This document shows positions 676-61,144 of a stretch of 64,000 nt of DNA, one piece after another. The notes under the pieces are model-generated. The model was not told the DNA's origin. It worked only from the letters and a program-made list of their open reading frames with translations, and did not search any database. A program made the translations under genes and the position numbers. Position 1 is the first letter of the stretch, and each line of letters starts with the position of its first letter. Source of the stretch: Actinomycetes bacterium (GTDB lineage: Bacteria; Actinomycetota; Thermoleophilia; BMS3ABIN01); the NCBI GenBank assembly GCA_021790115.1, contig JAJYIM010000002.1:14804-78803 (forward strand), given 5' to 3'.

Positions 676-847
676 GCCGCCCGGCCCCAATGCGAACAAT
701 CGTTTGAGATAGATTTTGCTCCCAAAGCTGCCGCACCGCTGCTTTAGTTTTTCTCCGATCAAACGCTAATGAAAACGCCTTCAATGCCGAAAAAGTTGGC
801 AACGCACGGGCAGTTTTTGTCAATTGTGGCAACCGGGAAGGTGAGCA

Positions 848-9042: not shown

Positions 9043-9065
9043 GGGCTGGCTGCTTAGGGCTTATC

Positions 9066-9112
9066 CCAGTAGGCGTATTCTACTGCGGCCGGCTGCAAAG
9101 GCTTTGGCATAG
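9066..9112. repeat. Partial copy of the MITE-like palindromic element (CTGCGGCCGGCTGCAAAGGC ... ATAGATTCT)
   Basis: About 40 nt are near-identical to 48738-48770, plus a terminal AGATTCT. It lies between convergent accA and ORF 9117-9695. Confidence 0.5.
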
Positions 9113-9116
9113 ATTC

Positions 9117-9695
9117 TTAGGCCGCTCGGCCGTCGCCCTCATCTTTCTCACTGAACTGGCGGTAAGCAAAATAGCCGGCGATTTCTCCCGCAACCAGCGT
9201 ATCGCCGAACCTGTTTATCGCCATCACGGCGCTTCGCAGCTCTTCCGCCTGCTTGGCGGAGTTCGGGGACACGTGATTAAAAATCGTTTCCTCAAGAGCT
9301 GTGCGGAAGCTGCTGGCATGGGTGACCAGGTCAGGGAGGCAAAAACCGACCGCCGTGCGGCGATAGGCGTCGTCCTGGGCCGCCTGGCGGGCGCGGTGCA
9401 GGATCTGGGAGTACTGGTACTCTTCGGAGCCCATTAGCTCCACAGCCAGCCCCAGGAAAGAGACGGCAACGGCGCGGCCCATAGGGGTACCCAGCATCTG
9501 CTCAAAGTCTTCGGCAACATGGCCGTGATAGGCCGCGAGCCAGCGTTGCAGTACCTCCTGCTGGTTTTCTCTAAGCGCACTGGCAAAAGTGAGCGAACTC
9601 ATGGGAAACAATCCGAAACTAGTTTGGCTGCATTTGCTCCCTAGAGTGTTTATCGGAGCCAAAAACGGGGTGCTTAATGAAAGGGTGCGGCGCAA
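9117..9695 (-). CDS. Hypothetical protein (no confident family assignment)
   Basis: 192-aa ORF directly downstream of larB on the minus strand. Codon usage matches its neighbours. Confidence 0.4.
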   Translation of the reverse strand: MRRTLSLSTPFLAPINTLGSKCSQTSFGLFPMSSLTFASALRENQQEVLQRWLAAYHGHVAEDFEQMLGTPMGRAVAVSFLGLAVELMGSEEYQYSQILHRARQAAQDDAYRRTAVGFCLPDLVTHASSFRTALEETIFNHVSPNSAKQAEELRSAVMAINRFGDTLVAGEIAGYFAYRQFSEKDEGDGRAA

Positions 9696-9719: not shown

Positions 9720-10499
9720 TTACCCGGTCGGCGGAGCCGCCTGGTTTGCTATCAGCGCCGCCGTGGCGCCGGCGCCGACGCCATTGTCGATATTGACAAC
9801 GGCAAGCCCGGGACAGCAGCTTTGCAGCATGGCCAGCAAGGCGGTCACACCTCCGCCTCCCAGGCCGTAGCCAGACGAAGTGGGGAGGCCGATCACCGGC
9901 ACCGGCACCAGGCCGGCAACCACGGAAGGCAGCGCTCCTTCCATCCCTGCGGCCACCACCAATGCGGCTGCGCCTGCCTCCATCATCTCACTCAGCGGCC
10001 CGGCCAGCCGGTGCAGCCCGGCCACGCCCACGTCGTATGCCGTTACTGCCTGGCAACCCATTTCTGCCGCGACAATGCGCGCCTGCTCGCACGCCGGCAC
10101 ATCGGCTGTGCCGGCCGAGAGGACACCGATCTTGCCTCCGCCAGCCCGCGGCTTAAGCCCCTTTTTTGCCAGCACAATGGTTTTGGCCTCTGCGCTCTGG
10201 GCGGCGATCATCCCGGCGAACCGGGACTCAAGCGCGGCCTGCTGCTCCCCGCTTAGGGAAGCGACGATTGAGCGGCCGCCGGCTTCAACAAGCGTGCTGC
10301 AGATTTCAAGCAATTGCCCAACCGTTTTACCGGGAGCAAAGACAATCTCCGGCACCCCCTTGCGCTGAAGACGCCCGGTGTCGAGCCTGGCGAACTCGCC
10401 AACCGCCAAAATTCCTGCCAGCGGCAGCCGCGCCTGCGCTTCGTCAATGCTGATCTTGCCTTCGGCAAGCTGCCTCAGGATCTCACGCTGGGTTTCCAC
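9720..10499 (-). CDS. larB: LarB-like PurE-family carboxylase (nickel-pincer cofactor biosynthesis / AIR carboxylase-like)
   Basis: GVPEIVFAPGKT, IGVLSAGTADVP, and a Gly-rich PurE-like fold (VAAGMEGALPSVVAG). Confidence 0.7.
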   Translation of the reverse strand: METQREILRQLAEGKISIDEAQARLPLAGILAVGEFARLDTGRLQRKGVPEIVFAPGKTVGQLLEICSTLVEAGGRSIVASLSGEQQAALESRFAGMIAAQSAEAKTIVLAKKGLKPRAGGGKIGVLSAGTADVPACEQARIVAAEMGCQAVTAYDVGVAGLHRLAGPLSEMMEAGAAALVVAAGMEGALPSVVAGLVPVPVIGLPTSSGYGLGGGGVTALLAMLQSCCPGLAVVNIDNGVGAGATAALIANQAAPPTG

Positions 10500-37487: not shown

Positions 37488-37541
37488 GCACAGCCGGCTC
37501 GCTCGGCCTCGCTGCGAACAGCCCTTTGAGATAGATTCTTA
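37488..37541. repeat. Copy of the MITE-like element end (GCTCGGCCTCGCTGCGAACAGCCCTTTGAGATAGATTCT)
   Basis: About 50 nt are near-identical to 48858-48905. Confidence 0.5.
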
Positions 37542-47764: not shown

Positions 47765-47852
47765 TGGAGGGCTGGAGTCATTGGACTCAGAATCTATCTA
47801 AAATAATTTGCAGCTGAAATTCTTATTCTAACACCTGTGCCCGCTCCGCTCC

Positions 47853-47882
47853 GTTGACTCTGGTTTCAAGTTGCTTTATCAT
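47853..47882 (+). promoter_or_regulatory. Putative promoter for rplM-rpsI: TTGACT-N17-TATCAT
   Basis: Read directly. About 30 nt upstream of the rplM ATG. Confidence 0.4.
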
Positions 47883-47911: not shown

Positions 47912-48343
47912 ATGAAAACTTACGTAGCCAAACCTGCCAATATCAACCGCAAATGGTATCTTGTGGACGCCAAGGGGCAGCGCCTTGGGCGCCTGGCGAC
48001 GCAGATTGCCAACACGTTGAGAGGCAAGAACAAGCCCGAATACACGCCAAACATCGACACCGGCGATTTCGTGGTGGTAATCAATGCAGGCAGGATAGCG
48101 GTAACCGGACGCAAGCGGGAGAACAAGGTTTACTATCGTCATTCGGGTTATCCTGGAGGCCTGAAAGAACGCACACTGGCCGAAATGCTGGACAGGCGCC
48201 CGCAGGAGGTTATCCGGCTGGCGGTGAAGGGCATGATGCCAAAAAACCGGCTGGCCCGCGCCCAGCTGAAAAAACTTAAGGTATTCGCGGGCCCCACGCA
48301 CGATCATGAGGCCCAGAAACCGGAGGAGTTCAAGCTTGGCTGA
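47912..48343 (+). CDS. rplM: 50S ribosomal protein L13
   Basis: [21 protein letters not shown]-terminus. Confidence 0.9.
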
Positions 48344-48722
48344 GTACAAAGCAACAGGAAAACGCAAATCTTCCATCGCCCGCGTGATGCTGATGCCCGG
48401 TGATGGCAAGATCACGGTTAACAGCCGCCCAATTGATGAATTTTTTCCACGTCCGCGGTTGCGCACGGAAGTGCGGATGCCGCTGGTCACGACCGGGACC
48501 GAGAAGCGATTTGATGTAGTCGCCAACATTGCCGGTGGCGGGGTCAGCGGCCAGGCCGGCGCGCTTAAGCACGGCATCGCCAGGGCTCTGCTGGACGCAG
48601 ATGACTCGCTGCGAAAAGAGCTCCGCGTGGGCGGATTCCTGACCCGCGACTCCCGCATCAAGGAACGGAAGAAAGCAGGGCTAAAAAGCGCCCGCAAGCG
48701 TCCGCAGTTCTCGAAGCGGTAA
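48339..48722 (+). CDS. rpsI: 30S ribosomal protein S9 (TTG start near 48339)
   Basis: [16 protein letters not shown] ... [18 protein letters not shown]. Confidence 0.85.
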
Positions 48723-48726
48723 TAAG

Positions 48727-48961
48727 AATCTATCTCAAAAAGCATATTCTGCTGCGGCCGGCTGCAAAGGCGATGGGCGGCGTCCTCGGAGCAAAAAGTC
48801 CTCGACGTACCGCAAGGGTACGACTGCGGGCTTTTTACTCCTGCGTCCTTGCCCATCGCCTTTTCGCTCGGCCTCGCCACGAACAGCCTTTTGAGATAGA
48901 TTCTAAGAACCTATCTCAAAAGACTGCTTGTAGCAGAAGATGCCTTTTAAGATAGATTCCA
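48727..48961. mobile_element. MITE-like palindromic element cluster with four copies of a 17-nt terminus. It lies between rpsI and murF.
   Basis: Reverse-complement terminus AGAATCTATCTCAAAAAG at 48727. Forward terminus CTTTTGAGATAGATTCT at 48889, directly followed by CCTATCTCAAAAG (a 12-bp hairpin). Another copy reads TTTTAAGATAGATTCC at 48945. The interior has its own inverted repeat (GCGATGGGC...GCCCATCGC). Related copies lie at 696-714, 9066-9112, 37488-37541 and 47797-47815. Confidence 0.5.
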
Positions 48962-48969
48962 GGGAGCAG

Positions 48970-50466
48970 ATGGCTGTCTCGATCGCAGGAAAAACTGAAC
49001 AAGTGATAACGCTCACGGCACAAGAGATACGCCGGGCCTGCGCCGGAGAATTGCTCGCGGGCGCAGCCCAGACCCCGGTTACACGCGTGTGTACCGACAC
49101 CCGCGCTTCTTTAAGTGAATGCTTGTTTGTGGCCATAAGGGGGGAGCACTTCGACGGAAACGAATTTGCCGGCGAAGCGCTCCTGAAGGGCGCCACCGGA
49201 GTCGCGGCCGAAAGCGGGGCTGCCCGGCGGCTGGTGGCGGAGCTGGCCTTGGCCGGTGAAGGCAGCGCGGTCACCGCGGCGCCGGTGGTAATCGCGGTGC
49301 CGGAAACAGGAAGGGCGCTGAAGCAGATTGCCTCGCTGGTGGCGGCCCGCAGCCATGCGCAGGTGATTGGCATCACCGGAAGCACCGGCAAGACTTCCAC
49401 CAAGGATATTCTTTCCTGCCTGCTGAAACCGCAGTTAAATGTTGTCGCCAGCCGGGCGAGCTTCAACAATGAAGTGGGGGTGCCTCTGACCCTGCTGGCG
49501 ATCACTAATGATACCCAGGTGGCAGTCGTTGAGATGGGCATGCAGTCCCGCGGCGAAATTGCGGGGCTGTGTTCAATTGTCGCTCCCCAGATAGCCGTGA
49601 TCACAAATATCGGGCCGGCTCACCTGGAGTACGCCGGCAGCCTTGAGAATATCGCCCGCGGCAAGGCGGAGATTGCCCGCCGGCTGCCTCCCGGCGGCGG
49701 CCTCGTGCTGCCGTTTGGCGATCACCTGCTGCAGCAATTCCTGGAAGGGCTGAATGTGCGGCGGATAACCTTCGGTTTTGACCAGGCAGCGGATATTCAC
49801 CCGGCGGGCCCGGCACGGCTGGAAAACGGCCGCCTTTGCTGCACCATTGCCTGCCTTGGCGAAGAGCTTGACGTTTGTTTTAACTTCGATGCCAGGCATC
49901 AGTTGCTTAACGCCATGGCTGCCATCGGCGCTTACCGGCTGTTGGGGCTGCCGCTGGCCGGGGTGGCTGCCGCCGGCCGCGATGTCTGCCTTCCCAGCAT
50001 GCGGGGTGAGACGCTTTCCCTGCCCGGCGGCGGCATCCTGATTAACGATTGTTACAATGCTAACCCCATGTCAATGAACGCCGCCCTCGAGCACTTGGCT
50101 GCCGCGAGCAACGGCCGCCGCAGCGTGGCGGTGCTGGGAGATATGGCCGAGCTGGGTCCCCGGTCCCGGCAGCTGCACCGGCAGGTGGGCGCAGCCGCCG
50201 CAGCCCTGGGCATCGACTGCCTTGTTGCTATAGGCGAGCTGGCCGCCGGGTTCATCGAAGGCGCCCGCGGCGCCGGCGCCTTGGGGAAGCTCCATTATTT
50301 TACTGACCGCGAGGCGGCCATTTCAGGCGTGCGGGAGCTGATCCGGCCCGGTGATGCGGTCCTGGTCAAAGGTTCGCGCTGCATGAGATTGGAGCAGCTG
50401 AGCGGGCTGTTAACGGCAGGCGGCAAGGAGGGCGGCAAGACAAGTTCGCGGAGAGAAAGCCGTTAG
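48970..50466 (+). CDS. murF: UDP-N-acetylmuramoyl-tripeptide--D-alanyl-D-alanine ligase MurF
   Basis: Mur ligase motifs GITGSTGKTSTK and DCYNANP. The ORF-track start at 48940 lies inside the repeat; ATG 48970 is more likely. Confidence 0.85.
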   Translation: MAVSIAGKTEQVITLTAQEIRRACAGELLAGAAQTPVTRVCTDTRASLSECLFVAIRGEHFDGNEFAGEALLKGATGVAAESGAARRLVAELALAGEGSAVTAAPVVIAVPETGRALKQIASLVAARSHAQVIGITGSTGKTSTKDILSCLLKPQLNVVASRASFNNEVGVPLTLLAITNDTQVAVVEMGMQSRGEIAGLCSIVAPQIAVITNIGPAHLEYAGSLENIARGKAEIARRLPPGGGLVLPFGDHLLQQFLEGLNVRRITFGFDQAADIHPAGPARLENGRLCCTIACLGEELDVCFNFDARHQLLNAMAAIGAYRLLGLPLAGVAAAGRDVCLPSMRGETLSLPGGGILINDCYNANPMSMNAALEHLAAASNGRRSVAVLGDMAELGPRSRQLHRQVGAAAAALGIDCLVAIGELAAGFIEGARGAGALGKLHYFTDREAAISGVRELIRPGDAVLVKGSRCMRLEQLSGLLTAGGKEGGKTSSRRESR

Positions 50467-50468
50467 GC

Positions 50469-51440
50469 ATGTTTAAAATCCTGGCTGCCGGCCTGGCCTC
50501 GATGCTGATAACCCTCTTCTTGGGACCAAAATTCATTGCCTTTGTCAGGGAGAACGAATTCGGCCAGCAGATCCGCGAGGAAGGGCCCGAAGAGCATCAC
50601 CGCACCAAGAAAGGCATCCCCACCCTGGGCGGGCTGTTGATCGTCGCGGGCGTGGCTGCGCCTTTCCTGATTCTGAGCCAGCGCAGCGTTGCCGGCTTGC
50701 TGGTGCTGACTACGGCGTTTGGCTGTGCCGCAATAGGTTTTGCCGACGACCTGGCTAAAATCAGGATGAAGCGCTCACTTGGGCTGCGGGCGCGCGGCAA
50801 GGTGGGCCTGCAACTGGTGCTGGCCGTGGCGGTTGGCCTGGTCGCCGTCCATTACGGCGGCATGCAGGAATCGATCCGGCTGCCGCTGAGCGGGCACGTC
50901 ATCGGCGTCGGTTTTGCCTATTACTTGATTATATTTTTGGTTGTGGTAGGAACCTCCAATGCCGTTAATCTCACCGACGGCCTGGATGGCCTGGCAGCAG
51001 GCGCTGTGACGGTGACCATGCTCACCTACACGGCGATTGCTTTTCTCACCAACCAAATGGACCTGGGGATCATCTCCGCCTGCATCGGCGGTGCCTGCGT
51101 CGGTTTTCTCTGGTTCAATTCATTTCCGGCGGAGGTATTCATGGGCGACACCGGCTCGCTGGGCCTGGGCGGGGCGATCGCTGCCCTGGCGGTGATGACG
51201 CGGACCGAGCTTCTGTTGCTGGTCATCGGCGGCCTGTTTGCCGCAGAGGCGCTGTCGGTCATCATCCAGGTCCTTAGTTTCAAACTGTTCAAAAAGCGGG
51301 TCTTTCTGATGACGCCCATCCATCATCATTTCGAGCTGCTGGCCTGGTCGGAGACAAAAATCATCATGCGTTTTTGGATCATTGGCGCCATTTTTGCTTC
51401 CACGGGATTCACGATATTTTACCTGTCGGTGCCGCGCTGA
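50469..51440 (+). CDS. mraY: Phospho-N-acetylmuramoyl-pentapeptide transferase MraY
   Basis: NAVNLTDGLDGLA, HHHFEL. Confidence 0.9.
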   Translation: MFKILAAGLASMLITLFLGPKFIAFVRENEFGQQIREEGPEEHHRTKKGIPTLGGLLIVAGVAAPFLILSQRSVAGLLVLTTAFGCAAIGFADDLAKIRMKRSLGLRARGKVGLQLVLAVAVGLVAVHYGGMQESIRLPLSGHVIGVGFAYYLIIFLVVVGTSNAVNLTDGLDGLAAGAVTVTMLTYTAIAFLTNQMDLGIISACIGGACVGFLWFNSFPAEVFMGDTGSLGLGGAIAALAVMTRTELLLLVIGGLFAAEALSVIIQVLSFKLFKKRVFLMTPIHHHFELLAWSETKIIMRFWIIGAIFASTGFTIFYLSVPR

Positions 51441-51446
51441 ATAAGC

Positions 51447-51619
51447 GGATATTGGATCTTGGACTTTGGATTTTACCCGAGACCATTCGGCTATGCCTGG
51501 AGAGCTTGGTTTGAGCAAGGCGAGGGACGGCAGAATGTTTGAGCTAACAGGATGAGCAGTAAAAACAAAAAGCGGGACTTGACTCAATGTCCAAGGTCCA
51601 ATATCCAAAATCCAAAGTC
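51447..51619 (+). promoter_or_regulatory. Inverted heptamer-array cassette upstream of murD: GGATATTGGATCTTGGACTTTGGATTTT (51447-51474) ... TTGACT (51579-51584) ... reverse-complement arm TCCAAGGTCCAATATCCAAAATCCAAAG (51590-51619)
   Basis: Read directly. The arms are reverse complements about 115 bp apart. Confidence 0.55.
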
Positions 51620-53125
51620 TGGTTTGAGGGCAATTTGCTGATTGCCGGCGCCGCCCGTTCCGGCAGGGCGGCGGCGCTGCTGGCGCGCCGCCTGTTGCCA
51701 GACGCGGAAGTCGTGGTTTGCGATCAAAGCGGCCGGCCGGCGCCGGAGGAAGAGCTGGCGGCGCTGGCGGCGGCGGGGGTGAAGCTTAAGCTGGGCAACC
51801 AGGATGCCAGCCTGCTTGACGGCTGCGGCCTGCTGGTAAAGAGCCCGGGTGTGCCGGCTGAGATTCCCCTTATCAGGGAAGCGCGGCGGCGCGGCGTTGC
51901 TGTCTGGGGCGAGATCGAGTTTGCCAGCCGTTTTTTGCCGAACCCTGTTATTGGCATAACGGGCACAAACGGCAAGACGACGGCCAGCGAGCTGGTTGGC
52001 CATATTCTCAGGGGAGCCGGCTGGCGGTGCCGGGTAGCCGGAAATGTAGGCACGGCGCTTTCATCGCTTGCGGGAGTCGTTGACAAAGATGACATTATCG
52101 TGGTGGAGCTCTCCAGTTTCCAGCTGGAGGACATCGTGGACTTCCGCGCTCATGTCGCCGTGCTGCTTAACTTAAGCGAGGATCACCTGGACCGCCACGC
52201 CGACGCCGCCGGGTATTATGCCGCCAAGATGAGGATCTTCGGGGGGCAGGAAGCGGGAGATGTGGCTGTTCTTAATGCGGGTGATCCTGCCGTAGCGGCG
52301 GCGCGCATTTCCGGGCAGGCCGGCAAGGTCTGGTTTGGTGTTCATGATGGCGAAATTGCCGGCGGCAGGCAGGGGTTGCCGGCGTTGGCAGTTTTTGCCA
52401 GCGGTGGAGAAATCAGGGCGGACATGGATCAGCTTGGCGCCGCTGCCCGCAAGGTCAGGGCCCGGTTTGCGGCTGCTTCCCCAGCGCCTGCATCTTGCGC
52501 GGGCGGCAGGAAAGCCGCCGCCGCCGGCGAAGACTCGGGAGGAAGTTTTGCGAAGATTATTTCCTGGCCGGAAGCTTCGATCAAAGGCGAGCATAACCTG
52601 GAAAACTCGCTGGCGGCCGCGGCCGTGTGCCTCTCCGCGGGGCTTTCCCCGGCTCAGGTAGCCGCCGGCTTGAGAAGTTTTCCCGGAGTGCCGCACCGGC
52701 TGCAGCGTGTGGCCGAGGTGGGCGGCGTCACATACGTCAATGACTCCAAGGCCACCAATGTCGCCGCCGCGGTCAAGGCGCTGACCGCCTTTGACAATGG
52801 TGTTCATTTGATCTTGGGAGGCAGCCGGAAGGGGTGCTCTTTTGCGGGGCTGGCGCAGGCGGCCGCCACCGGCAAGGTGAAAGAAGTAATTGCCATCGGT
52901 GAGGCGGCGGCCGAGATCGCCACCAGTTTTAAGCAGGTTGATAAAACTGTAATGGTTGTTGATGGTTTGGAAGATGCGGTCAGAGCCGCGGCCGAGGATG
53001 CTGTCCCCGGCGATGTTGTCTTGCTGGCGCCGGCTTGCGCCAGTTTTGACCAGTACGGCAACTTTGAGCAGCGGGGAGAGCATTTTATCTCCCTGGTAAG
53101 TCAATTGAAGACGGAGGCAGGTTGA
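51587..53125 (+). CDS. murD: UDP-N-acetylmuramoylalanine--D-glutamate ligase MurD (the true start may be TTG 51635 after GAGGG)
   Basis: GITGTNGKTT and Mur ligase central/C-terminal domains. The first 16 codons of the ORF-track start are encoded by the heptamer arm. Confidence 0.85.
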   Translation: MSKVQYPKSKVWFEGNLLIAGAARSGRAAALLARRLLPDAEVVVCDQSGRPAPEEELAALAAAGVKLKLGNQDASLLDGCGLLVKSPGVPAEIPLIREARRRGVAVWGEIEFASRFLPNPVIGITGTNGKTTASELVGHILRGAGWRCRVAGNVGTALSSLAGVVDKDDIIVVELSSFQLEDIVDFRAHVAVLLNLSEDHLDRHADAAGYYAAKMRIFGGQEAGDVAVLNAGDPAVAAARISGQAGKVWFGVHDGEIAGGRQGLPALAVFASGGEIRADMDQLGAAARKVRARFAAASPAPASCAGGRKAAAAGEDSGGSFAKIISWPEASIKGEHNLENSLAAAAVCLSAGLSPAQVAAGLRSFPGVPHRLQRVAEVGGVTYVNDSKATNVAAAVKALTAFDNGVHLILGGSRKGCSFAGLAQAAATGKVKEVIAIGEAAAEIATSFKQVDKTVMVVDGLEDAVRAAAEDAVPGDVVLLAPACASFDQYGNFEQRGEHFISLVSQLKTEAG

Positions 53126-54414
53126 GCGGCAAGCCCGGAAAGAGGCCGGGCCGGAAATTCGGCGGCCGGATCAGGGGCGCGCGCCCGGCGCACCGGCCGG
53201 GCGGCACGACAGAATACTTTGTGCTGACTGTCCTGACGATGGTGCTGTTGGCGTTTGGCGTCGTGATGGTTTTTAGCGCCAGCTGGGCCAGTTCCTATCT
53301 GGGCGAGACCCACGACAGCTTATATTATCTGAAGCGCGAGCTTGTCTTTGCCGCTGCGGGCCTGGCGTTAATGTTTATCATGGCCCGCTTCGATTATACG
53401 CGCCTGCGGAAGCTGGCGCCTCTGCTGATGGCTGCTTCGCTTCTGCTGCTGGTTTTGGTATTAGTCCCCGGGATCGGTCACAAGATCAATGGCGCCCGCC
53501 GCTGGATTGGCGTCGGCATGGGTGGTTTCCAGCCGCAGCCGGCAGAACTGGCCAAGCTGGCGGTCATTCTCTATGTGGCGGCGGTGATGTCCGCCCGGCG
53601 GCTCCTGCTGAAGAGCTTAAGCGGAATGGCTCTGCCGCTGCTGGTGATGCCGGCCCTGGCCTGCGGCCTGGTGCTGGTCGAGCCGGATCTGGGGACAGCT
53701 TTAACTATATGTATTATCTTTGCTTCAATGCTGATCATTGGCGGCGTCCGGCTGCGGCTGCTGGCGCTGCCGGCGCTTGGCGGCGCCCTGGTGACGGGAT
53801 TATCTGTGCTGGTCTCTCCGCATCAGGCATCGCGCATCACTACTTTCCTTGATCCCTGGAAGCACGCCCAGGGTTCGGGTTACCAGATTATCCAGTCCCT
53901 GGTCGGCCTGGCTTCCGGCGGCCTCCTCGGGGTCGGCATCGGCAATGGTGTGCAGAAATTCGACTGGCTGCCGGAAAATCACACTGATATGATCTTGTCA
54001 ATCATCGGCGAGGAGCTAGGGCTGATCGGAGTGCTGGCGGTGCTGCTCTGCTTCGCTGTCCTTGCTTTTATTGGCTACCGCATCGCTCTCAAGTGCCGTG
54101 ACCCGTTTGGCAAGTACGTGGCAGCCGGGATCACGACCCTGATAGTAGGCCAGGCCGCCGTCAATTTCTGCGCCGTGACGGGAATGCTGCCGCTAACGGG
54201 CGTGCCGCTGCCGATCATCAGCTATGGTGGCAGCAGCCTCGTCGTCATCCTGGCAAACATAGGTATTTTGCTCAACATCGCAATCAATCCACGGAGTAGA
54301 ATTGCCGCTCCCGGCACAAGGAATTTCAAAGCAATTGAAGGTGGTAATCGCAGCCGGAGGAACGGCCGGGCATCTGGTGCCCGCGCTGGCTCTCGCCGAC
54401 GCGCTCACGGGTAG
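53122..54414 (+). CDS. ftsW: Peptidoglycan glycosyltransferase FtsW (SEDS family)
   Basis: SEDS motifs (GINGARRWIG, PQPAELAK, SDMIL). 10 TM. Confidence 0.85.
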   Translation: MSGKPGKRPGRKFGGRIRGARPAHRPGGTTEYFVLTVLTMVLLAFGVVMVFSASWASSYLGETHDSLYYLKRELVFAAAGLALMFIMARFDYTRLRKLAPLLMAASLLLLVLVLVPGIGHKINGARRWIGVGMGGFQPQPAELAKLAVILYVAAVMSARRLLLKSLSGMALPLLVMPALACGLVLVEPDLGTALTICIIFASMLIIGGVRLRLLALPALGGALVTGLSVLVSPHQASRITTFLDPWKHAQGSGYQIIQSLVGLASGGLLGVGIGNGVQKFDWLPENHTDMILSIIGEELGLIGVLAVLLCFAVLAFIGYRIALKCRDPFGKYVAAGITTLIVGQAAVNFCAVTGMLPLTGVPLPIISYGGSSLVVILANIGILLNIAINPRSRIAAPGTRNFKAIEGGNRSRRNGRASGARAGSRRRAHG

Positions 54415-55477
54415 GGGCGCCGGGGTTTCCTTTATCGGCACTGCCCGGGGGCTGGAGGCCAGTCTGGTGCCGGAGGCCGGCTACGAGCTTGACCAGGCTG
54501 ACTTGAGGGGCCTGGAGCGGCGGTTGTCACCCCGGTTTCTCCTTTTCTTCTGGTCGCTGTTTAAAGGCAGTTTTGACTCCCTGGCGATTCTCAGGCGCAG
54601 GCGGCCTGACGTTGTGGTCGGCGGCGGCGGCTATGTCAGCGCCGTGCCGGTTTTTGTGGCGGCTGTTACGGGCGCGCCTGTGCTGATCGTCGAGCTTGAT
54701 TCCCATATGGGATTGGCCAACCGCGTCCTTGCGCCTTTTGCCGGCCTTGTCTGCTTAAGCTTTCCGATCCCGGGAAAGACAGGGGAAAAATACGCAATCA
54801 CCGGGCGGCCACTGCCGGGAAGGCTGCTGACGGCCAATCCGGACGAAGGGAGGAGAAGGTTTAATTTAAACGGCGATTTGCCGGTGGTGCTGGTAAGCGG
54901 CGGCAGCCTGGGGGCAAAGTCCATCAACATGGCTTGCGCGGAGGCATTCGGGAGGGGCCGGCTGGAGCTGCAACTTGTGCACGTCAGCGGCAGGCGCGAC
55001 TTTGAAACTGTCAGACGCCTCTTGCAGGAGCAGGGTGCAGATCTGGAGAATTATCATTTGCTAGACTATACAAATGATTTACCCTTGGCGATGGCGGCAG
55101 CGGACCTGGTGGTAGGACGGTCCGGGGCGTCTGTGCTGGAAGTGGCGGCGCTGGGAAAGCCGGCGCTGCTTATTCCTTATCCCCACGCGACCGCCAGTCA
55201 CCAGCTTCATAATGCGCAATGGATGGCCGGCGCCGGCGCAGCCGAGGTTATCGAGGACAGCGAGCTTACGGGCAGCGTGTTCAGGGAGCGGGTGTTGGCC
55301 CTGCTGGATAATCCGGCGCGACTGCATCAGATGGCGGCCGCCAGCGCCGCCCTGGGCCGCCGGGACGGGGCCGAACGGATTGCAGACGAGGTGCTGAAAT
55401 TGAATAAGCGGATGCCGGATTCTGGAGCCCGGACGCTGGCCAGGACCAAAAAAGCAAATAAGCAACTTGATAAATAG
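54302..55477 (+). CDS. murG: Undecaprenyldiphospho-muramoylpentapeptide beta-N-acetylglucosaminyltransferase MurG
   Basis: AAGGTAGHLVPALA, GGSLGA. The ORF-track start overlaps ftsW by 113 nt and the true start is probably about 54340. The C-terminal tail (KRMPDSGARTLARTKKANKQLDK) is encoded by a repeat cassette. Confidence 0.85.
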   Translation: MPLPAQGISKQLKVVIAAGGTAGHLVPALALADALTGRGAGVSFIGTARGLEASLVPEAGYELDQADLRGLERRLSPRFLLFFWSLFKGSFDSLAILRRRRPDVVVGGGGYVSAVPVFVAAVTGAPVLIVELDSHMGLANRVLAPFAGLVCLSFPIPGKTGEKYAITGRPLPGRLLTANPDEGRRRFNLNGDLPVVLVSGGSLGAKSINMACAEAFGRGRLELQLVHVSGRRDFETVRRLLQEQGADLENYHLLDYTNDLPLAMAAADLVVGRSGASVLEVAALGKPALLIPYPHATASHQLHNAQWMAGAGAAEVIEDSELTGSVFRERVLALLDNPARLHQMAAASAALGRRDGAERIADEVLKLNKRMPDSGARTLARTKKANKQLDK

Positions 55478-55520
55478 AAAATAATCGTCATAATCTGCCG
55501 AACTTGGAACTTTGAACTCT
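55408..55520 (+). promoter_or_regulatory. Repeat/promoter cassette overlapping the murG 3' end: GGATGCC-GGATTCT-GGAGCCC-GGACGCT, an A-rich tract, TTGATA (55467-55472)-N16-CATAAT (55489-55494), then GAACTTGGAACTTTGAACTCT
   Basis: Read directly. Confidence 0.55.
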
Positions 55521-56900
55521 AGGCCGCGAAAACTTCATTTCATTGGCATTGGCGGCGCCGGCATGAGCGGCATCGCCCAGGTTGCTCACAGCCTTGGCTA
55601 TCAGGTCACCGGATCTGACCTGAAGCGCTCCCGCTTCACGCGCATGCTTGACCAAAGCGGCATCCCTGTCTCTTTCGGGCATGACCCGGCCCATCTGGGA
55701 GATGCTGACGCCGTCGTTGTCTCGACCGCTATCCCTTCTCAAAATGTGGAGCTCAGGGCTGCCCTGGAGCGGAAGCTGCCGGTTTATCACCGCGCCCAGA
55801 TGCTTGCTGAGCTGATGGGCATGAAGCGGGGCGTCGCCATCGCCGGCACGCATGGCAAGACCACCACCACTTCGATGGTCGCGCACGCCATGGAGCTGCT
55901 GGACCTTGAGCCGTCCTATGTGGTGGGAGGGGAGCTTAACGATGTCGGCAGCAATGCCCGCGCCGGCGCCGGCGACTGGCTTGTCGCCGAAGCTGATGAG
56001 AGTGATGGCTCCCTTCTTTTTCTGCATCCCGAAATTGCCGCCATCACTAATGTCGAGCTTGACCATCATTCCCATTACAGCTCACTTGACCAGATATTAC
56101 AGGTATTTGAGACATTCGTGTCGGCGCTGCCTGAGACAGGCGCCCTGGTGATCTGGGACACGCCGCTGCTGAAAGAGCTGGCTTTTGCCACAAAGGCCGC
56201 TGTTATTACTTATGGTTTAGACGACAGCGCCGATTACCGCGCCGGCAACATTCTCGTCACCAAGGAAGGGACCAGTTTCGACCTGGAATGTCCCGGCGGC
56301 AATGGACGCAGCCAGGTAGCGCTCTCGGTGCGGGGATCGCACAATGTTTTAAATGCGCTGGCGGCGCTGGCGGTCCTGGACCAGGTTGGCCTGAGGCCGG
56401 CCCAGGCCGCGCCGGCGCTGGCCAGGTTCACCGGCGCCGCCCGCCGCTTCCAGGTAAAAGGCGAGGCCGGCGGCGTCACTGTCGTTGACGATTACGCCCA
56501 CCACCCGACCGAGGTCAGGGCAACGCTGGAAGCCGCCCGAGCGGCAGGTTGGCAGCGGATAATCGGCGCATTTCAGCCTCATCTTTTTTCACGCACCCGC
56601 TATCTTCATGACGAGCTGGGGCGGGTGCTCAATCTGTGCGATCTTGCCATCGTTACAGATGTGTTTGGGGCCCGGGAGGAACCCGAGCCCGGCATTAGCG
56701 GCAAGCTGATCGTCGACTCAGCGCTCAAATGGGAGCCGGGGGCCGACGTCGCTTATATTCCTCGCAGCCGTGACATCGTGCCATTGTTGCTGCGCGAGCT
56801 TAAGCCCGGCGACCTGGTTGTTACCCTGGGCGCGGGCGACATCTTTAAAGTTGGCGAAGACCTGCTGGCGGCACTGGAACGGCAGGAGAGCCTTGTTTGA
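55512..56900 (+). CDS. murC: UDP-N-acetylmuramate--L-alanine ligase MurC (TTG start)
   Basis: HFIGIGGAGMSGIA, GTHGKTTTTSM. Confidence 0.9.
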   Translation: MNSRPRKLHFIGIGGAGMSGIAQVAHSLGYQVTGSDLKRSRFTRMLDQSGIPVSFGHDPAHLGDADAVVVSTAIPSQNVELRAALERKLPVYHRAQMLAELMGMKRGVAIAGTHGKTTTTSMVAHAMELLDLEPSYVVGGELNDVGSNARAGAGDWLVAEADESDGSLLFLHPEIAAITNVELDHHSHYSSLDQILQVFETFVSALPETGALVIWDTPLLKELAFATKAAVITYGLDDSADYRAGNILVTKEGTSFDLECPGGNGRSQVALSVRGSHNVLNALAALAVLDQVGLRPAQAAPALARFTGAARRFQVKGEAGGVTVVDDYAHHPTEVRATLEAARAAGWQRIIGAFQPHLFSRTRYLHDELGRVLNLCDLAIVTDVFGAREEPEPGISGKLIVDSALKWEPGADVAYIPRSRDIVPLLLRELKPGDLVVTLGAGDIFKVGEDLLAALERQESLV

Positions 56901-57831
56901 GGCAGGCTCCGTTGACAGCGAGGCCCGCGCCGGGCTGGAGCAGGCCGCAGGACGTCCGGGAGCCGCCGGCGTTGGCTTTGACAGGTTGATAACTATTGGC
57001 TGCGGCGGCCCTGCCGCCTTTTTCATTGAAGCCGACAGCACCGCCCACTTGGCGGCTATTCTGGCGGCGTCGTCGCAGCATGATCTTCCCTGGTTTTTGC
57101 TGGGGCGTGGTTCGAACCTGCTGGTGGCGGACGACGGCTGGCCGGGCGTAGTCATCCGGCTGACCGGTGATCTCAAGCAATGCCGTCGAGACGGAGACCG
57201 GCTTGATTGCGGCGCCGGCGTTTCATTGCCGGCGGCAGCAGCCGCCGCTCAGGCCGCGGCCCTTTCCGGCCTGGAGCCGCTGGCCGGTATCCCCGGCACT
57301 ATCGGCGGGGCAGTGGCCATGAACGCAGGCGCTTTTGGGACCACGATTGGTGATCTGGTCAGCAGGGTAGTAATTTGTTTTCCGGGTGAGACAGCGGTGC
57401 TTGACCAGGACAAGCTGGAATTTGGCTACCGGAGCGCGCGCCTGCCTGTCGGGGGCGTGGTAGCCAGAGCCGTGCTGACGCTAAAGCCGGCGCAGCCGGA
57501 TGACATCAAAAACACGATGCGCGAATTTAGCGGGCAAAGGACAGCCTCCCAGCCGGCTGGCGGCAAGACGTGCGGCAGCGTATTTAAGAATCCTCCCGTT
57601 GGGAAAAGCGCCGGTTTTCTGCTGGACCGCGCCGGCTGCAAAGGGGTCCGCAGCGGCGGCGCCAGTGTTTCCTCAACACATGCAAATTTCATTGTCAACG
57701 ATGGTGGCGCCAGCGCCGCCGACGTGCTTGACTTGATGAACAATTGCCGCCGCCGCGTTTACGACCATTACGGGATAGTGCTCGAGCCGGAGGTCGGGCT
57801 GCTGGGCATCAATCTGGATCCGTTGCCGTGA
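56893..57831 (+). CDS. murB: UDP-N-acetylenolpyruvoylglucosamine reductase MurB
   Basis: FAD-binding GGPA and GRGSNLLV motifs. TTG 56893 after GGAG overlaps the murC stop. Confidence 0.85.
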   Translation: MFEAGSVDSEARAGLEQAAGRPGAAGVGFDRLITIGCGGPAAFFIEADSTAHLAAILAASSQHDLPWFLLGRGSNLLVADDGWPGVVIRLTGDLKQCRRDGDRLDCGAGVSLPAAAAAAQAAALSGLEPLAGIPGTIGGAVAMNAGAFGTTIGDLVSRVVICFPGETAVLDQDKLEFGYRSARLPVGGVVARAVLTLKPAQPDDIKNTMREFSGQRTASQPAGGKTCGSVFKNPPVGKSAGFLLDRAGCKGVRSGGASVSSTHANFIVNDGGASAADVLDLMNNCRRRVYDHYGIVLEPEVGLLGINLDPLP

Positions 57832-58550
57832 GCGGCGGTGGTTTTCACTGGCCGTGGCGGTTGAGTTTTTTGCTGCTGTTGCTGCTGGCGGTTTGCCTCG
57901 CTGTTTTTTTCTGGTTGAGCCGGTCTTCGCTTCTGGCAGTCGAGCACATTGACGTTGATGGCAACAGCGCCACACCCACGGATCAGATACTGGAAAAAGC
58001 CGCCCCCCTGCTGGACGGGCGCAGTCTGCTCAGCTTTTCTTTTGCTGGCGTTGACGCTGCGCTAAAACAGCTTCCCTTTATAGCCGGGGTTGAGATCGAC
58101 AGGGATTTTCCCCACACGATTCACCTGCACATTTATGAGCGCCAACCGGTAGCCTGGCTGAAGACTGCTGATAAGTATTTATTGTTGTCAAGTGACGGCT
58201 ATGTTCTTGCCGCTGCGCCCGGACCCGGGCAGGATCTGCCGCTGTTGACAACCAAAGACCCTTGCAACTCTGAAGTTGGTCAACGCGCCGGTTGTGCCGA
58301 CGTCAGCACCGGCATCGACTTCCTGGGTGACGTGCCGGAAAATTTCAACCAGGAATTTAGCGAAGTCGCGGTGGCCGCTGGCGATATCAGCGCCAAGACC
58401 AAAACAAGCGTAAGTGTGCATTTCGGCTCGCTCGCGAACTACAGTCTCAAGTTTGAGGTGCTGAAGCAACTGATCGCCAGGGCGGCGGCCGCCGGCCAAA
58501 CGGTCTCGGTAGATGTCTCCGTTCCCGAGCGGCCCGTAACGAAAAGATAA
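57826..58550 (+). CDS. ftsQ: Cell division protein FtsQ/DivIB
   Basis: Single TM (LLLLLLAVCLAVFFWL) then a POTRA-like region. GTG 57826 overlaps the murB stop (GTGA). Confidence 0.7.
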
Positions 58551-58552
58551 AA

Positions 58553-58665
58553 CCGGATGGTGGATAGTGGATAAACCCAAAAAACCAAAACCCAAAAAAC
58601 CAGAACCTAACTTATAAACGGAAAATAATCATCATATCTTTTCGGAAACCAGAAGTCGGAAACCA
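58553..58665 (+). promoter_or_regulatory. Repeat/promoter cassette upstream of ftsA: GGATGGT-GGATAGT-GGAT, AAACCCAAAAAACCAAAACCCAAAAAACCAGAACC, TTATAA-N15-CATATC, then CGGAAACC-N6-CGGAAACC
   Basis: Read directly. Confidence 0.5.
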
Positions 58666-58678
58666 TTCCTAATCTGCA

Positions 58679-60019
58679 GTGAAAAAGAACAGTGAAAAAA
58701 AGGCAGGCAATGCCGGCAAGGGTGGCAGGCCAGGACGGGCGCCGGCCGGCTCTCCATTTCCCCCGGTCGTTGCCCTGGACGTCGGCACCACCAAAATAGC
58801 CTGCCTGATTGGCGAGCTTGATGGGCAAGGGAAGCTTGACAGAATTAGCGGCATCGGCAATGCGCCGGCGCAAGGAATGCACAAGGGAGTGGTTGTTGAC
58901 ATTGAAAATGCTTCGGAGTCTATTAGGGCATCGGTCGCGGCTGCGGCAGGAGCTGCCGGGGCGCCTGTGGACAGCGTCTTTGCCGGAGTGGCGGGCGCGC
59001 ATGTGGTTTCCCTGAACCGGCGGGTCTCCCTCATCAATCCCAATCCTGACGGGCGCGTGACCAAGTCGGAGCGCCAGGCGCTTCTAAAAAAACTGAAGCA
59101 GGTTGAAATGCCGCCCGATCTGAAGTTGATTCATGCGCTGCCCCGCCAGTATATTCTGGACGGCCAGGATGGCATCAAGCGGCCGGTGGGCATGTGGGCG
59201 AAGCGCATCGAGATGGACGGCCATCTCGTGTTCGGAGCCATCAGCTCGATTCAAAATCTGGTCGCGGCGGTGGAACGGGCCGGCCTTGCGGTTGCGGATA
59301 TTGTCCTGGAGCCATTGGCTTCCAGCCGCGCCTGTCTGAAAGAGCATGAGCTTCAGTCAGGCGTGATGCTGGTGGATATCGGCGGCGGCACGACAGATGT
59401 TGTCATATTTACAGCAGGCCGGCTTGTCCATTCAGCAGTTTTGCCCGTAGGCGGGAACCATATCACCAAGGATATATCAGTGGCGCTCAAGGTGCCGCTG
59501 GATGCTGCTGAGGCGATAAAGCTTAAGCATGGCCATGCCCAAAGCCATCTGGTTGAGGACATTGAGATGGCAAAGTTCCGGGTGGCCGTGCCGGGCGCCA
59601 CCCAGGAGAGAACGGTCACATTCTCAAAGAAATTTCTCGCCCGCGTCATCGAGTCGAGGGTGACAGAGATTTTTTCGCTTGTTCGTAAGCAGGCCAGGGA
59701 AAGCGGTTATCTCTCAAGCATTGCTGCAGGGATTGTCATTACCGGGGGGTCGAGCCAGCTTGAGGGTATTTGCGGACTGGCGGAGCAGGCGTTGTCGTAC
59801 CCCAGCCGGACAGGACTACCAAGTAATGCCGCTGCCATTATTGACATCCCCAGTAATCCCGTCTATGCTACCGCCGTAGGCTTGATTTTATATGGGAGCG
59901 AGCGTATTTTTAAGCGGGGGCCGAGCCGGCCGCCAGAAGTCTCTACCCGTCCTTTAGGGTTATGGGAAGAGGTTCTGGCCAAGGTTAAGGGTTGGTTTGG
60001 GCAGGAGAGCAAAACCTAG
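58679..60019 (+). CDS. ftsA: Cell division protein FtsA
   Basis: Actin-fold motifs VVALDVGTTKIACLIGE and DIGGGTTD. Confidence 0.9.
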   Translation: MKKNSEKKAGNAGKGGRPGRAPAGSPFPPVVALDVGTTKIACLIGELDGQGKLDRISGIGNAPAQGMHKGVVVDIENASESIRASVAAAAGAAGAPVDSVFAGVAGAHVVSLNRRVSLINPNPDGRVTKSERQALLKKLKQVEMPPDLKLIHALPRQYILDGQDGIKRPVGMWAKRIEMDGHLVFGAISSIQNLVAAVERAGLAVADIVLEPLASSRACLKEHELQSGVMLVDIGGGTTDVVIFTAGRLVHSAVLPVGGNHITKDISVALKVPLDAAEAIKLKHGHAQSHLVEDIEMAKFRVAVPGATQERTVTFSKKFLARVIESRVTEIFSLVRKQARESGYLSSIAAGIVITGGSSQLEGICGLAEQALSYPSRTGLPSNAAAIIDIPSNPVYATAVGLILYGSERIFKRGPSRPPEVSTRPLGLWEEVLAKVKGWFGQESKT

Positions 60020-60031
60020 ACCCTGGAGGTT

Positions 60032-61144
60032 TTGACTATTATGTTGGATCCTGGTAGCAGTTACCTGGCGGTCATAAGAGTAGTTGGCGTTGGCGGCGGC
60101 GGCACGAACGCCGTTAACCGCATGGTGGACGCGGGCCTGAAGGGCGTCGAATTCATTGCCGTAAATACTGATGCCCAGGCGCTGCTCATGTGCGACGCCG
60201 ATGTAAAGCTGCATATTGGCGGCAAGATCACGCAGGGGCTGGGAGCCGGAGCCGATCCGGAGGTCGGCCGCGAGGCCGCCGAGGAAAGCCGCGACGAAAT
60301 CCGTGAAGCGATCAAGGGCTCCGACATGGTGTTTGTGACCGCGGGCAAGGGCGGCGGCACCGGCACCGGCGCCGCTCCCGTTATTGCCGAGATCGCCAAG
60401 GAGCTGGGGGCGCTTACCGTTGGCGTGGTCACAAGGCCGTTTTCTTTTGAGGGAAAGCGCCGCAGCGACCAGGCCGAAGAAGGCATCCGCGCCCTGCGGG
60501 AAAAAGTCGATACGGTCATCATCATTCCCAACGACCGCCTGCTGCAGGTGGTTGAGAAGCGCACCTCCATCATCGATGCCTTCAAGGTCGCCGACGACGT
60601 CCTCCGGCAGGGCGTGCAGGGGATCACCGACCTTATCACGGTTCCGGGGCTTATCAACCTTGATTTTGCCGATGTCAAGGCAATCATGAGGGACGCCGGC
60701 TCAGCGCTGATGGGTATTGGCGTCGCCGGCGGCGAAAACCGGGCCGCCGAGGCCGCCAAGGCGGCCATTTCCTCGCCGCTGCTGGAAGCTTCGGTGGAGG
60801 GCGCAACCGGCATCCTGCTCAATATTACCGGCGGCCAGGATCTGGGCTTGTTTGAAGTCAACGAGGCGGCCGAGGTCATTTCCAGCGCCGCCGACGCCAA
60901 TTGCAATATCATTTTTGGCGCCGTCATTGATGACAGCATCAAGGACGAGGTCAAGGTCACTGTTATCGCCACCGGTTTTGACAAGCAGCCCGGCCATCTC
61001 GGCAGGCGCGAGGCTGCCGGCGAGCCGATGTTTAAAAAAACGGCGGCCGGCGAGCGCGGCCAGAATGACCAGAAAGATGTGCCGGGATTTGAGCTAAATG
61101 ACGATATCCTTGATATTCCGACTTTTTTGAGGGAGAAAGAATAG
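60032..61144 (+). CDS. ftsZ: Cell division protein FtsZ
   Basis: Tubulin signature GGGTGTG, NTDAQAL. Confidence 0.95.

Follow-up and report, generated by a model that had tools for sequence, protein, structure and literature searches.

Short intergenic repeats bounded by the ends of an IS5-family insertion sequence in an uncultured actinobacterial lineage

Introduction

In the genome of an uncultured actinobacterium, the spacer between rpsI and murF holds a palindromic element of roughly 180 bp, and stretches that resemble its ends recur at other intergenic positions of the same contig. The question raised by this locus is whether these repeats are mobile DNA and, if so, of which kind. The DNA analysed here is a stretch of 64 kb, which is referred to as the window. 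The homologues of its MurF protein place the organism among the uncultured Actinomycetota, the named relatives being Thermoleophilia and MAGs labelled 'Actinobacteria bacterium'. A sequence-only reading of the window had proposed a MITE-like mobile family with conserved inverted termini, and had offered a REP-like family as an alternative.

MITE families commonly include size variants and truncated copies, and their insertions tend to cluster (PMC10969869, PMC3184786). The cyanobacterial MITE Nezha is a small palindrome that has its TIRs and direct repeats in common with a full IS, ISNpu3, and its mobility was inferred from filled and empty sites (PMC3184786). Chunjie, a family from Geobacter uraniireducens, measures 178-235 bp, comes in size variants and partial copies, and has inserted into an operon without destroying it (PMC10969869). 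Its TIRs are 21 bp long and its direct repeats 9 bp (PMC3184786).

Results

The end of the family was defined as the 16-nt terminus GAATCTATCTCAAAAG, which is present in inverted orientation on the complete copies as TIRs of 16-19 nt. With the motif AGAATCTATCTCAAAAG and up to three mismatches, seven matches were found in the 64-kb window, against 0.03 expected from shuffling, and none of 100 shuffles gave seven or more. An HMM built from all the termini gathered, metagenome ones included, detected exactly eight termini at six intergenic sites, the rest being at noise level; these are the seven pattern matches and one more at 9109-9124 (-). Four termini lie in the rpsI-murF spacer, at 48725-48741 (+), 48888-48904 (-), 48906-48922 (+) and 48944-48960 (-). 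The remaining ones were located at 701-717 (-), downstream of gyrA, at 37523-37539 (-), and at 47789-47805 (+), between a DUF1848 gene and rplM. BLAST of the spacer against the window revealed similarity beyond the termini themselves. The right arm, 48864-48904, matches 37499-37539 with 93% identity over 41 nt, and part of the left arm, 48745-48771, matches 9076-9102, beside the additional HMM terminus, with 96% identity over 27 nt. Right-arm similarity at 676-717 is weaker than at 37499-37539.

The genes next to these sites were identified by Pfam as the C-terminus of gyrA, accA, an ABC-class ATPase gene, the DUF1848 gene and rpsI, and murF was recognized by its Mur_ligase domains. The names given in the sequence-only reading (gyrA, accA, ABC-class ATPase, rpsI and murF) were borne out, with 'fxsA' left unconfirmed. 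That reading had also picked out the right objects, with positions off by 1-8 nt, and was correct in placing all copies between genes: every family copy in the window is intergenic. Apart from two complete copies, the window contains a short copy with one end decayed, a pair of solo arms and a single degenerate terminus.

Both complete copies are found in the rpsI-murF spacer. The long one covers 178 bp (48726-48903), with TIRs at 48726-48741 and 48888-48903, and it is flanked by TAA on both sides. The left TAA (48723-48725) adjoins the rpsI stop codon (48720-48722), and the right TAA (48904-48906) doubles as the left flank of the short copy, which is 53 bp long (48907-48959). The termini of the short copy (GAACCTATCTCAAAAG / GAATCTATCTTAAAAG) are slightly degenerate; on its right it is flanked by CAG in place of TWA, and it ends 10 nt upstream of the murF start codon. 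The earlier description of the four termini as nested or tandem can be narrowed. Because they alternate as L, R, L, R, nesting is excluded and only a tandem is possible, composed of the 178-bp element, TAA and the 53-bp element. In the RNA fold, the first and the fourth terminus of the spacer can pair.

The 84-nt arms of the long copy are complementary at 70%, which makes it an imperfect palindrome. The interior inverted repeat that had been described for it was found (AAAGGCGATGGGC/GCCCATCGCCTTT, at 48766-48778/48851-48863). Its centre is a hairpin at 48788-48841, which contains an A5 run at 48793-48797 and a T5 run at 48832-48836. No coding capacity was detected in the 178-, 53- and 60-bp elements, the ORFs there being spurious and overlapping.

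The 60-bp element is a short family member at 9057-9116, between accA and a convergent ORF. Its right end is ATAGATTC and its left terminus is degenerate, with 9/16 matches. It is flanked by TTA (9054-9056) and TTA (9117-9119); read on the minus strand, the second triplet is the TAA stop codon of the ORF 9117-9695. Downstream of gyrA, a solo right-arm fragment of 42 nt (676-717, minus strand) with the terminus AAAATCTATCTCAAAC begins right behind the gyrA stop codon TAA (673-675). Another solo right arm (37499-37538, minus strand) lies upstream of the ABC-class ATPase gene and is followed by TTA (37539-37541); a weak promoter-like site, CTTACA-16-TATCAT, straddles the point where this arm meets its flank. 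Between the DUF1848 gene and rplM, the degenerate terminus GAATCTATCTAAAATA (47790-47805, plus strand) is perhaps what is left of a 39-bp element that ended at 47828 and is followed by TAA.

Metagenome contigs were scanned with a specific terminus pattern, which returned 42 loci. About 15 high-GC contigs hold real family members, many of them with two or three termini, and the low-GC loci, which match the pattern only, look like chance hits. When the contigs of a genome collection were scanned with the 14-mer GAATCTATCTCAAA, 120 loci were obtained, all of them chance matches of at most 19 nt. In three of the metagenome contigs (L131, L132 and L153), inverted termini separated by exactly 956 bp were found to enclose a conserved interior. 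This unit, bounded by GAATCTATCTCAAAAG...CTTTTGAGATAGATTC, occurs with at least four different flanks, and partial copies are present in L150 and L160. It encodes an ORF of 145 aa with a DUF4096 domain (PF13340, E=1.8e-23) and a second ORF, overlapping the first, with a DDE_Tnp_1 domain (PF01609, 9.7e-11). Both ORFs match the NCBIfam model NF033580, 'IS5 family transposase', at positions 3-102 and 110-258, respectively. The break between them falls at a TTTTGGGGGG run, and a -1 shift at this point restores a single protein. Since their termini are identical to those of the 956-bp unit, the window elements carry exactly the ends of an IS5-family IS.

More than 7000 relatives were found for the conceptually fused transposase; those nearest to it are single ORFs of about 280 aa with about 70% identity. 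Named relatives come from Tundrisphaera and Fimbriiglobus (Planctomycetota) and from a Solirubrobacterales MAG (Actinomycetota), so that the IS clade spans both phyla. Six copies with 63-67% transposase identity were inspected, two from Tundrisphaera (L165, L166), two from Fimbriiglobus (L176, L177), one from an ENA record (L178) and one from the Solirubrobacterales MAG (L179). They lie on well-assembled contigs, five of at least 177 kb and L179 on a MAG contig of 20 kb. Where both ends were measured, the IS is 924-946 bp long. The ends of the six are related, G(A/T/G)A(A/T)C(T/C)ATC..., those of the Solirubrobacterales MAG being more diverged than the ends of the 956-bp IS. In a search of plasmid records, the nearest curated IS names were at most 44% identical, e.g. 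the ISAzo38 family. No transposase of this kind was found by tblastn to be encoded in the 64-kb window. Elements of the IS1031/IS427-like kind are about 0.85-1 kb long, with short TIRs and a 3-bp TNA/TWA duplication. The combination of DUF4096 and DDE_Tnp_1, a length of 924-956 bp, short TIRs and a 3-bp TTA/TAA duplication, described below, identifies the partner as an IS5-family DDE element of NF033580 type, about 0.95 kb long and IS427/IS1031-like, the classification being made at the level of the IS5 family.

Two further observations were made next to copies of the 956-bp IS. In L131, an ORF of 420 aa (137-1399) directly precedes the IS5-type element; on visual inspection, its C-terminal portion (...WLNQVEIYFSIIQRKVL...) resembles IS630-type DDE transposases, and the contig may represent an IS-rich region. 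In L153 (~1776-1795), a few GGGATTA units repeated in tandem adjoin the IS copy.

The target site was deduced from the flanks of 34 distinct termini. Before the terminal G, the consensus is C (21/34), T (27/34), W (25/34) and A (31/34), which suggests CTWAG as the putative target. Sixteen elements have TWA on both sides, and the 3-bp direct repeats are identical in 14 of them (binomial p≈0.002, for a null of 50% in which TAA and TTA are assigned independently). The two unequal pairs belong to L129b and L153, the latter with TTA and TAA. Perfect TTA/TTA or TAA/TAA duplications were observed in all six transposase relatives (L165, L166, L176, L177, L178 and L179). The sequence-only reading had advised looking for target-site duplications, and a 3-bp TWA duplication is what these pairs display.

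These data bear on two other mobile origins that would account for copies which are intergenic, palindromic, clustered and often placed at gene ends. One is a REP/REPIN-like family moved by a RAYT, i.e. a Y1 transposase related to IS200/IS605; the other is a MITE of IS630/Tc1 type with a TA target. REP sequences are imperfect palindromes of 20-40 nt that such a Y1 enzyme recognises, and they have neither a TIR nor a target-site duplication. The conserved unit, however, is a TIR identical to that of a DDE element of the IS5 family and is accompanied by a target-site duplication, which speaks against REP and RAYT, and the duplication has 3 bp, TAA or TTA, and not the TA of an IS630/Tc1 (Correia-like) element. 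Nor did a Y1 or IS630 gene bearing these ends come to light. An origin of either kind is considered extremely unlikely, and the REP-like alternative of the sequence-only reading finds no support. That reading had also advised checking whether a transposase, of IS200/IS605 TnpB or IS630 type, carries matching ends. An IS with matching ends does exist, in metagenome contigs, but it is of IS5 type.

Among 21 elements, seven have a flanking TAA that, read on the appropriate strand, terminates an ORF of at least 100 codons. By comparison, only 6.9% of the TAA triplets found across the window terminate an ORF of this length. The stop codon of gyrA (673-675) is one such flank, as are those of the ORF that ends at 9117-9119 and of a TPR gene in L167 (5708-5710); at rpsI, the stop codon is the triplet adjacent to the flanking TAA. 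This bias is likely to arise because TAA is rare outside stop codons at 60% GC, insertions within genes are purged and the duplication regenerates the stop codon. Insertions at stop codons were also seen in L129, L157 and L166. L129 also contains two short family members of 71 and 76 bp, 23 nt apart (298-467), and the 8-nt flanks of the second, CACGCTAA / TTAGCGTG, are inverted, not direct, repeats.

In the closest relative (L167), which comes from the same sample and shares 72% MurF identity, a member of the same MITE subfamily was found at a different locus (L167:5711-5828). Both of its arms match the long copy, and its centre is about 55 nt shorter. It is flanked by TAA on both sides, the left TAA being the stop codon of the TPR gene. 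Another relative, L168, has the same gene pair (TPR-mraZ) and a conserved mraZ promoter region, with unrelated sequence where the L167 element sits. The element is thus absent from the L168 spacer, the two spacers being too diverged to display a clean single-TAA site. Exact-protein look-ups with RplM, MraY and MurF yielded a second assembly of this organism alone, and no strain in which the spacer differs.

The arms of the long copy are common to L167:5711-5828 and to 9076-9102, 37499-37538 and 676-717 of the window, and beyond the TIR they are unrelated to the interior of the IS. That this sequence is shared by copies at different loci and is unlike the IS interior argues that the copies multiplied as small elements. 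This bears on the possibility that the small elements are remnants of full-length IS copies which lost their interior by deletion at each site, without having transposed as MITEs. The solo arms and degenerate termini at 676-717, 37499-37538 and 47790-47805 would fit such decay, as would the resemblance of the first ~20-30 nt of the arms to the IS ends. On the other hand, arm sequence outside the TIR is common to different loci and species (96%, 93% and both arms in L167), and independent deletions would not produce the same non-IS interior. Deletion in place is therefore judged improbable.

The long copy folds much more stably than shuffled sequences, with z about -9.3 as DNA and about -9.6 as RNA. 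For the central hairpin, energies of -27.5 kcal/mol (+) and -28.2 kcal/mol (-) were calculated, with z about -4.2, and the A5 and T5 runs that bracket it make it terminator-like on both strands. The alignment shows that the L167 copy has no such central module. Rfam gave no family match to any element of the window; its sole match there was a fluoride riboswitch (RF01734, 35261-35322, minus strand, 44.5 bits, E=4e-9). In a simple promoter and terminator scan of the plus strand, no site was predicted inside the elements. The one good promoter-like site in that scan lies at 47854-47882, upstream of rplM.

The very stable fold of the transcript (z=-9.6), the A5-hairpin-U5 at the centre of the long copy and the position of the copies after genes could also be expected of a conserved, non-mobile cis-regulatory element, i.e. 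a structured RNA, a terminator/insulator or a palindromic protein-binding site, repeated by chance. Against this stand the negative Rfam result, the interiors that differ wholly between copies with only the termini conserved, the same termini around a transposase gene, the absence of the element from the orthologous spacer of a relative and the L167 copy, which is devoid of the terminator-like centre. Such an element is a most improbable explanation of the family. Within the family, the one part for which a role as terminator or insulator appears plausible is the A5-hairpin-T5 at the centre of the long copy; it is the best terminator candidate and could terminate or stabilise rplM-rpsI transcripts.

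The ORF track had placed the start of murF within the repeat. The longest murF ORF begins at 48940, inside the short copy, and the suspicion that this start was misplaced proved right. The supported start is at 48970, outside the element, giving a protein of 498 aa (48970-50466, plus strand). It agrees with the gene call of the ENA assembly, with an exactly matching database protein (P0121) and with the N-termini of relatives, to which the MAVS... N-terminus aligns; a GGGAG motif lies just upstream.

In all sampled relatives (L167-L174), mraZ-rsmH-ftsL-ftsI is followed by a conserved spacer of about 400 nt and then by murF..ftsZ. In the window (47912-61144), rplM-rpsI is followed by murF-mraY-murD-ftsW-murG-murC-murB-ftsQ-ftsA-ftsZ, with the pair of MITEs alone between them. 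No homologues of MraZ, RsmH, FtsL and FtsI were found in the window, nor did the proteins encoded upstream in L167 have a match there. With the FtsI of L167 as query, no FtsI attributable to the window organism was retrieved, a 70% match (P0243) being of the L169 type.

The ftsI-murF spacer of the relatives shows several features of its own. It contains a conserved small ORF (L167:9723-10001, L169:9737-9994 and L168:~9735-10000) of 85-92 aa, which starts with MKVEYHLILQDGLLATAVYD..., has no Pfam match and is missing from the window. A conserved stretch just upstream of murF in the relatives is missing from the window as well, and murE is not found between ftsI and murF in this lineage. Right behind ftsI, L169 carries a different hairpin element (~9596-9690) with perfect arms of about 30 nt (GGGGACGTTGCTTTCCTAACGTTCCTAATT ... 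AATTAGGAACGTTAGGAAAGCAACGTCCCC), which suggests that this spacer attracts palindromic insertions in the lineage.

In the second assembly of this organism (ERZ27233565), the contigs from either side terminate inside the long MITE. One of its contigs ends at window position 48896 (L122:10805-10985) and the other begins at 48743 (L121:1-154), so that they overlap by 154 nt (48743-48896). Four differences from the window fall within the last 46 nt of the rpsI-side contig (48851, 48859, 48878 and 48888), compared with only one in 10.9 kb of flank. This clustering at the contig end suggests a second, slightly different copy in the sample. The synteny break may reflect either a true rearrangement at the MITEs or a chimeric join that the assembly made across the repeat. 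That the two MITEs mark, and perhaps mediated, the break of the conserved division/cell-wall cluster is a tentative idea that we regard as rather doubtful.

Discussion

Taken together, the elements very probably constitute a family of short non-coding MITEs derived from an IS5-family IS of the NF033580 type, roughly 0.95 kb in length. The mobile, MITE-like family put forward in the sequence-only reading is upheld by the 956-bp IS with identical ends, by the 3-bp duplications, by the several copies and by the occurrence of copies at non-orthologous sites in related species. Judged by their sequence, the elements have the features that would be expected of MITEs: they are dispersed and shorter than about 500 bp, lack coding capacity, and are bounded by TIRs equal to those of an autonomous IS and by target duplications.

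A mechanism can be proposed on this basis. A full-length relative would supply the DDE transposase in trans, and this enzyme would recognise the TIRs of 16-19 bp (GAATCTATCTCAAAAG...). It would move the element into a (C)TWA(G) target and duplicate the central TAA or TTA. As TAA is often a stop codon, the duplication would restore the stop, and insertions could settle immediately after genes with no damage. The inserted end and the duplication would also re-create the target, which may account for head-to-tail pairs like that of the rpsI-murF spacer. That the MITEs were mobilised in trans is what we infer, and the same holds for any effect of the elements on transcription and for the timing of their last movement.

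Correia elements duplicate TA and carry an IHF site. Together with the pneumococcal RUP, BOX and SPRITE, these elements of Neisseria are intergenic, 50-200 bp long and equipped with TIRs, and they form stable RNA hairpins; they are co-transcribed and clustered, with adjacent insertions and sometimes terminator-like modules (PMC10969869, PMC3184786). They are not known to have the termini of the window family or an IS5-type partner. Chunjie is alike in size range, whereas the TIRs of the window family are 16-19 bp long and its duplication is the 3-bp TWA. Nezha and ISNpu3 offer the closest analogy, the matching IS being known from other organisms and not from the MITE-bearing genome (PMC3184786), a comparison that in the present case refers to the 64-kb window. 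They differ in IS family, termini and host phylum, and filled and empty sites are available there, compared with diverged spacers here.

IS1237 of Leifsonia xyli, an actinobacterium, belongs to the IS427/IS1031 group of the IS5 family, is 899 bp long and duplicates TTA/TAA (PMC2516522). With IS1237, ISLxx6 and other NF033580-type IS5 elements, the partner shares short TIRs, the 3-bp TTA/TAA duplication and membership of the IS5 family (PMC2516522). In contrast, the terminus of IS1237, GAGGTGGTTTCAGTAGTCG, is unrelated to the GAATCTATCTCAAAAG of the partner. The partner itself has a DUF4096 and DDE_Tnp_1 transposase; some copies encode it with a frameshift, others as one ORF.

Tourist-type MITEs, which belong to PIF/Harbinger, also have a 3-bp TWA (TTA/TAA) target duplication. 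Their transposases are related to those of bacterial IS5, but they are eukaryotic, have other termini and stand in no direct relationship to the family described here. Harbinger and IS5 have been treated as one group (PMC12730594).

A literature search on the terminus sequence found no match in the searchable literature, and the family is unnamed. It is nothing new in kind and not surprising, and its description is a useful annotation. It defines a MITE/IS pair by the termini GAATCTATCTCAAAAG, the (C)TWA(G) target and an NF033580-type transposase. If a transposase of this type with GAATCTATCTC ends were encoded in the same MAG, current mobility would be supported; if it were absent, fossil copies would be suggested. 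Palindromes of this sort can also break or mis-join short-read assemblies.

For the organism, the finding explains intergenic repeats of an uncultured Actinomycetota lineage by an ordinary kind of bacterial mobile DNA, and it illustrates how a TAA-duplicating element can settle on stop codons and leave the genes unharmed. Its wider interest is confined to the possible link with the split of the dcw cluster. If the join between rpsI and murF is real, the MITEs, with the hairpin that is terminator-like in both directions, would supply all the sequence that sets the transcription of ten essential genes relative to the ribosomal operon.
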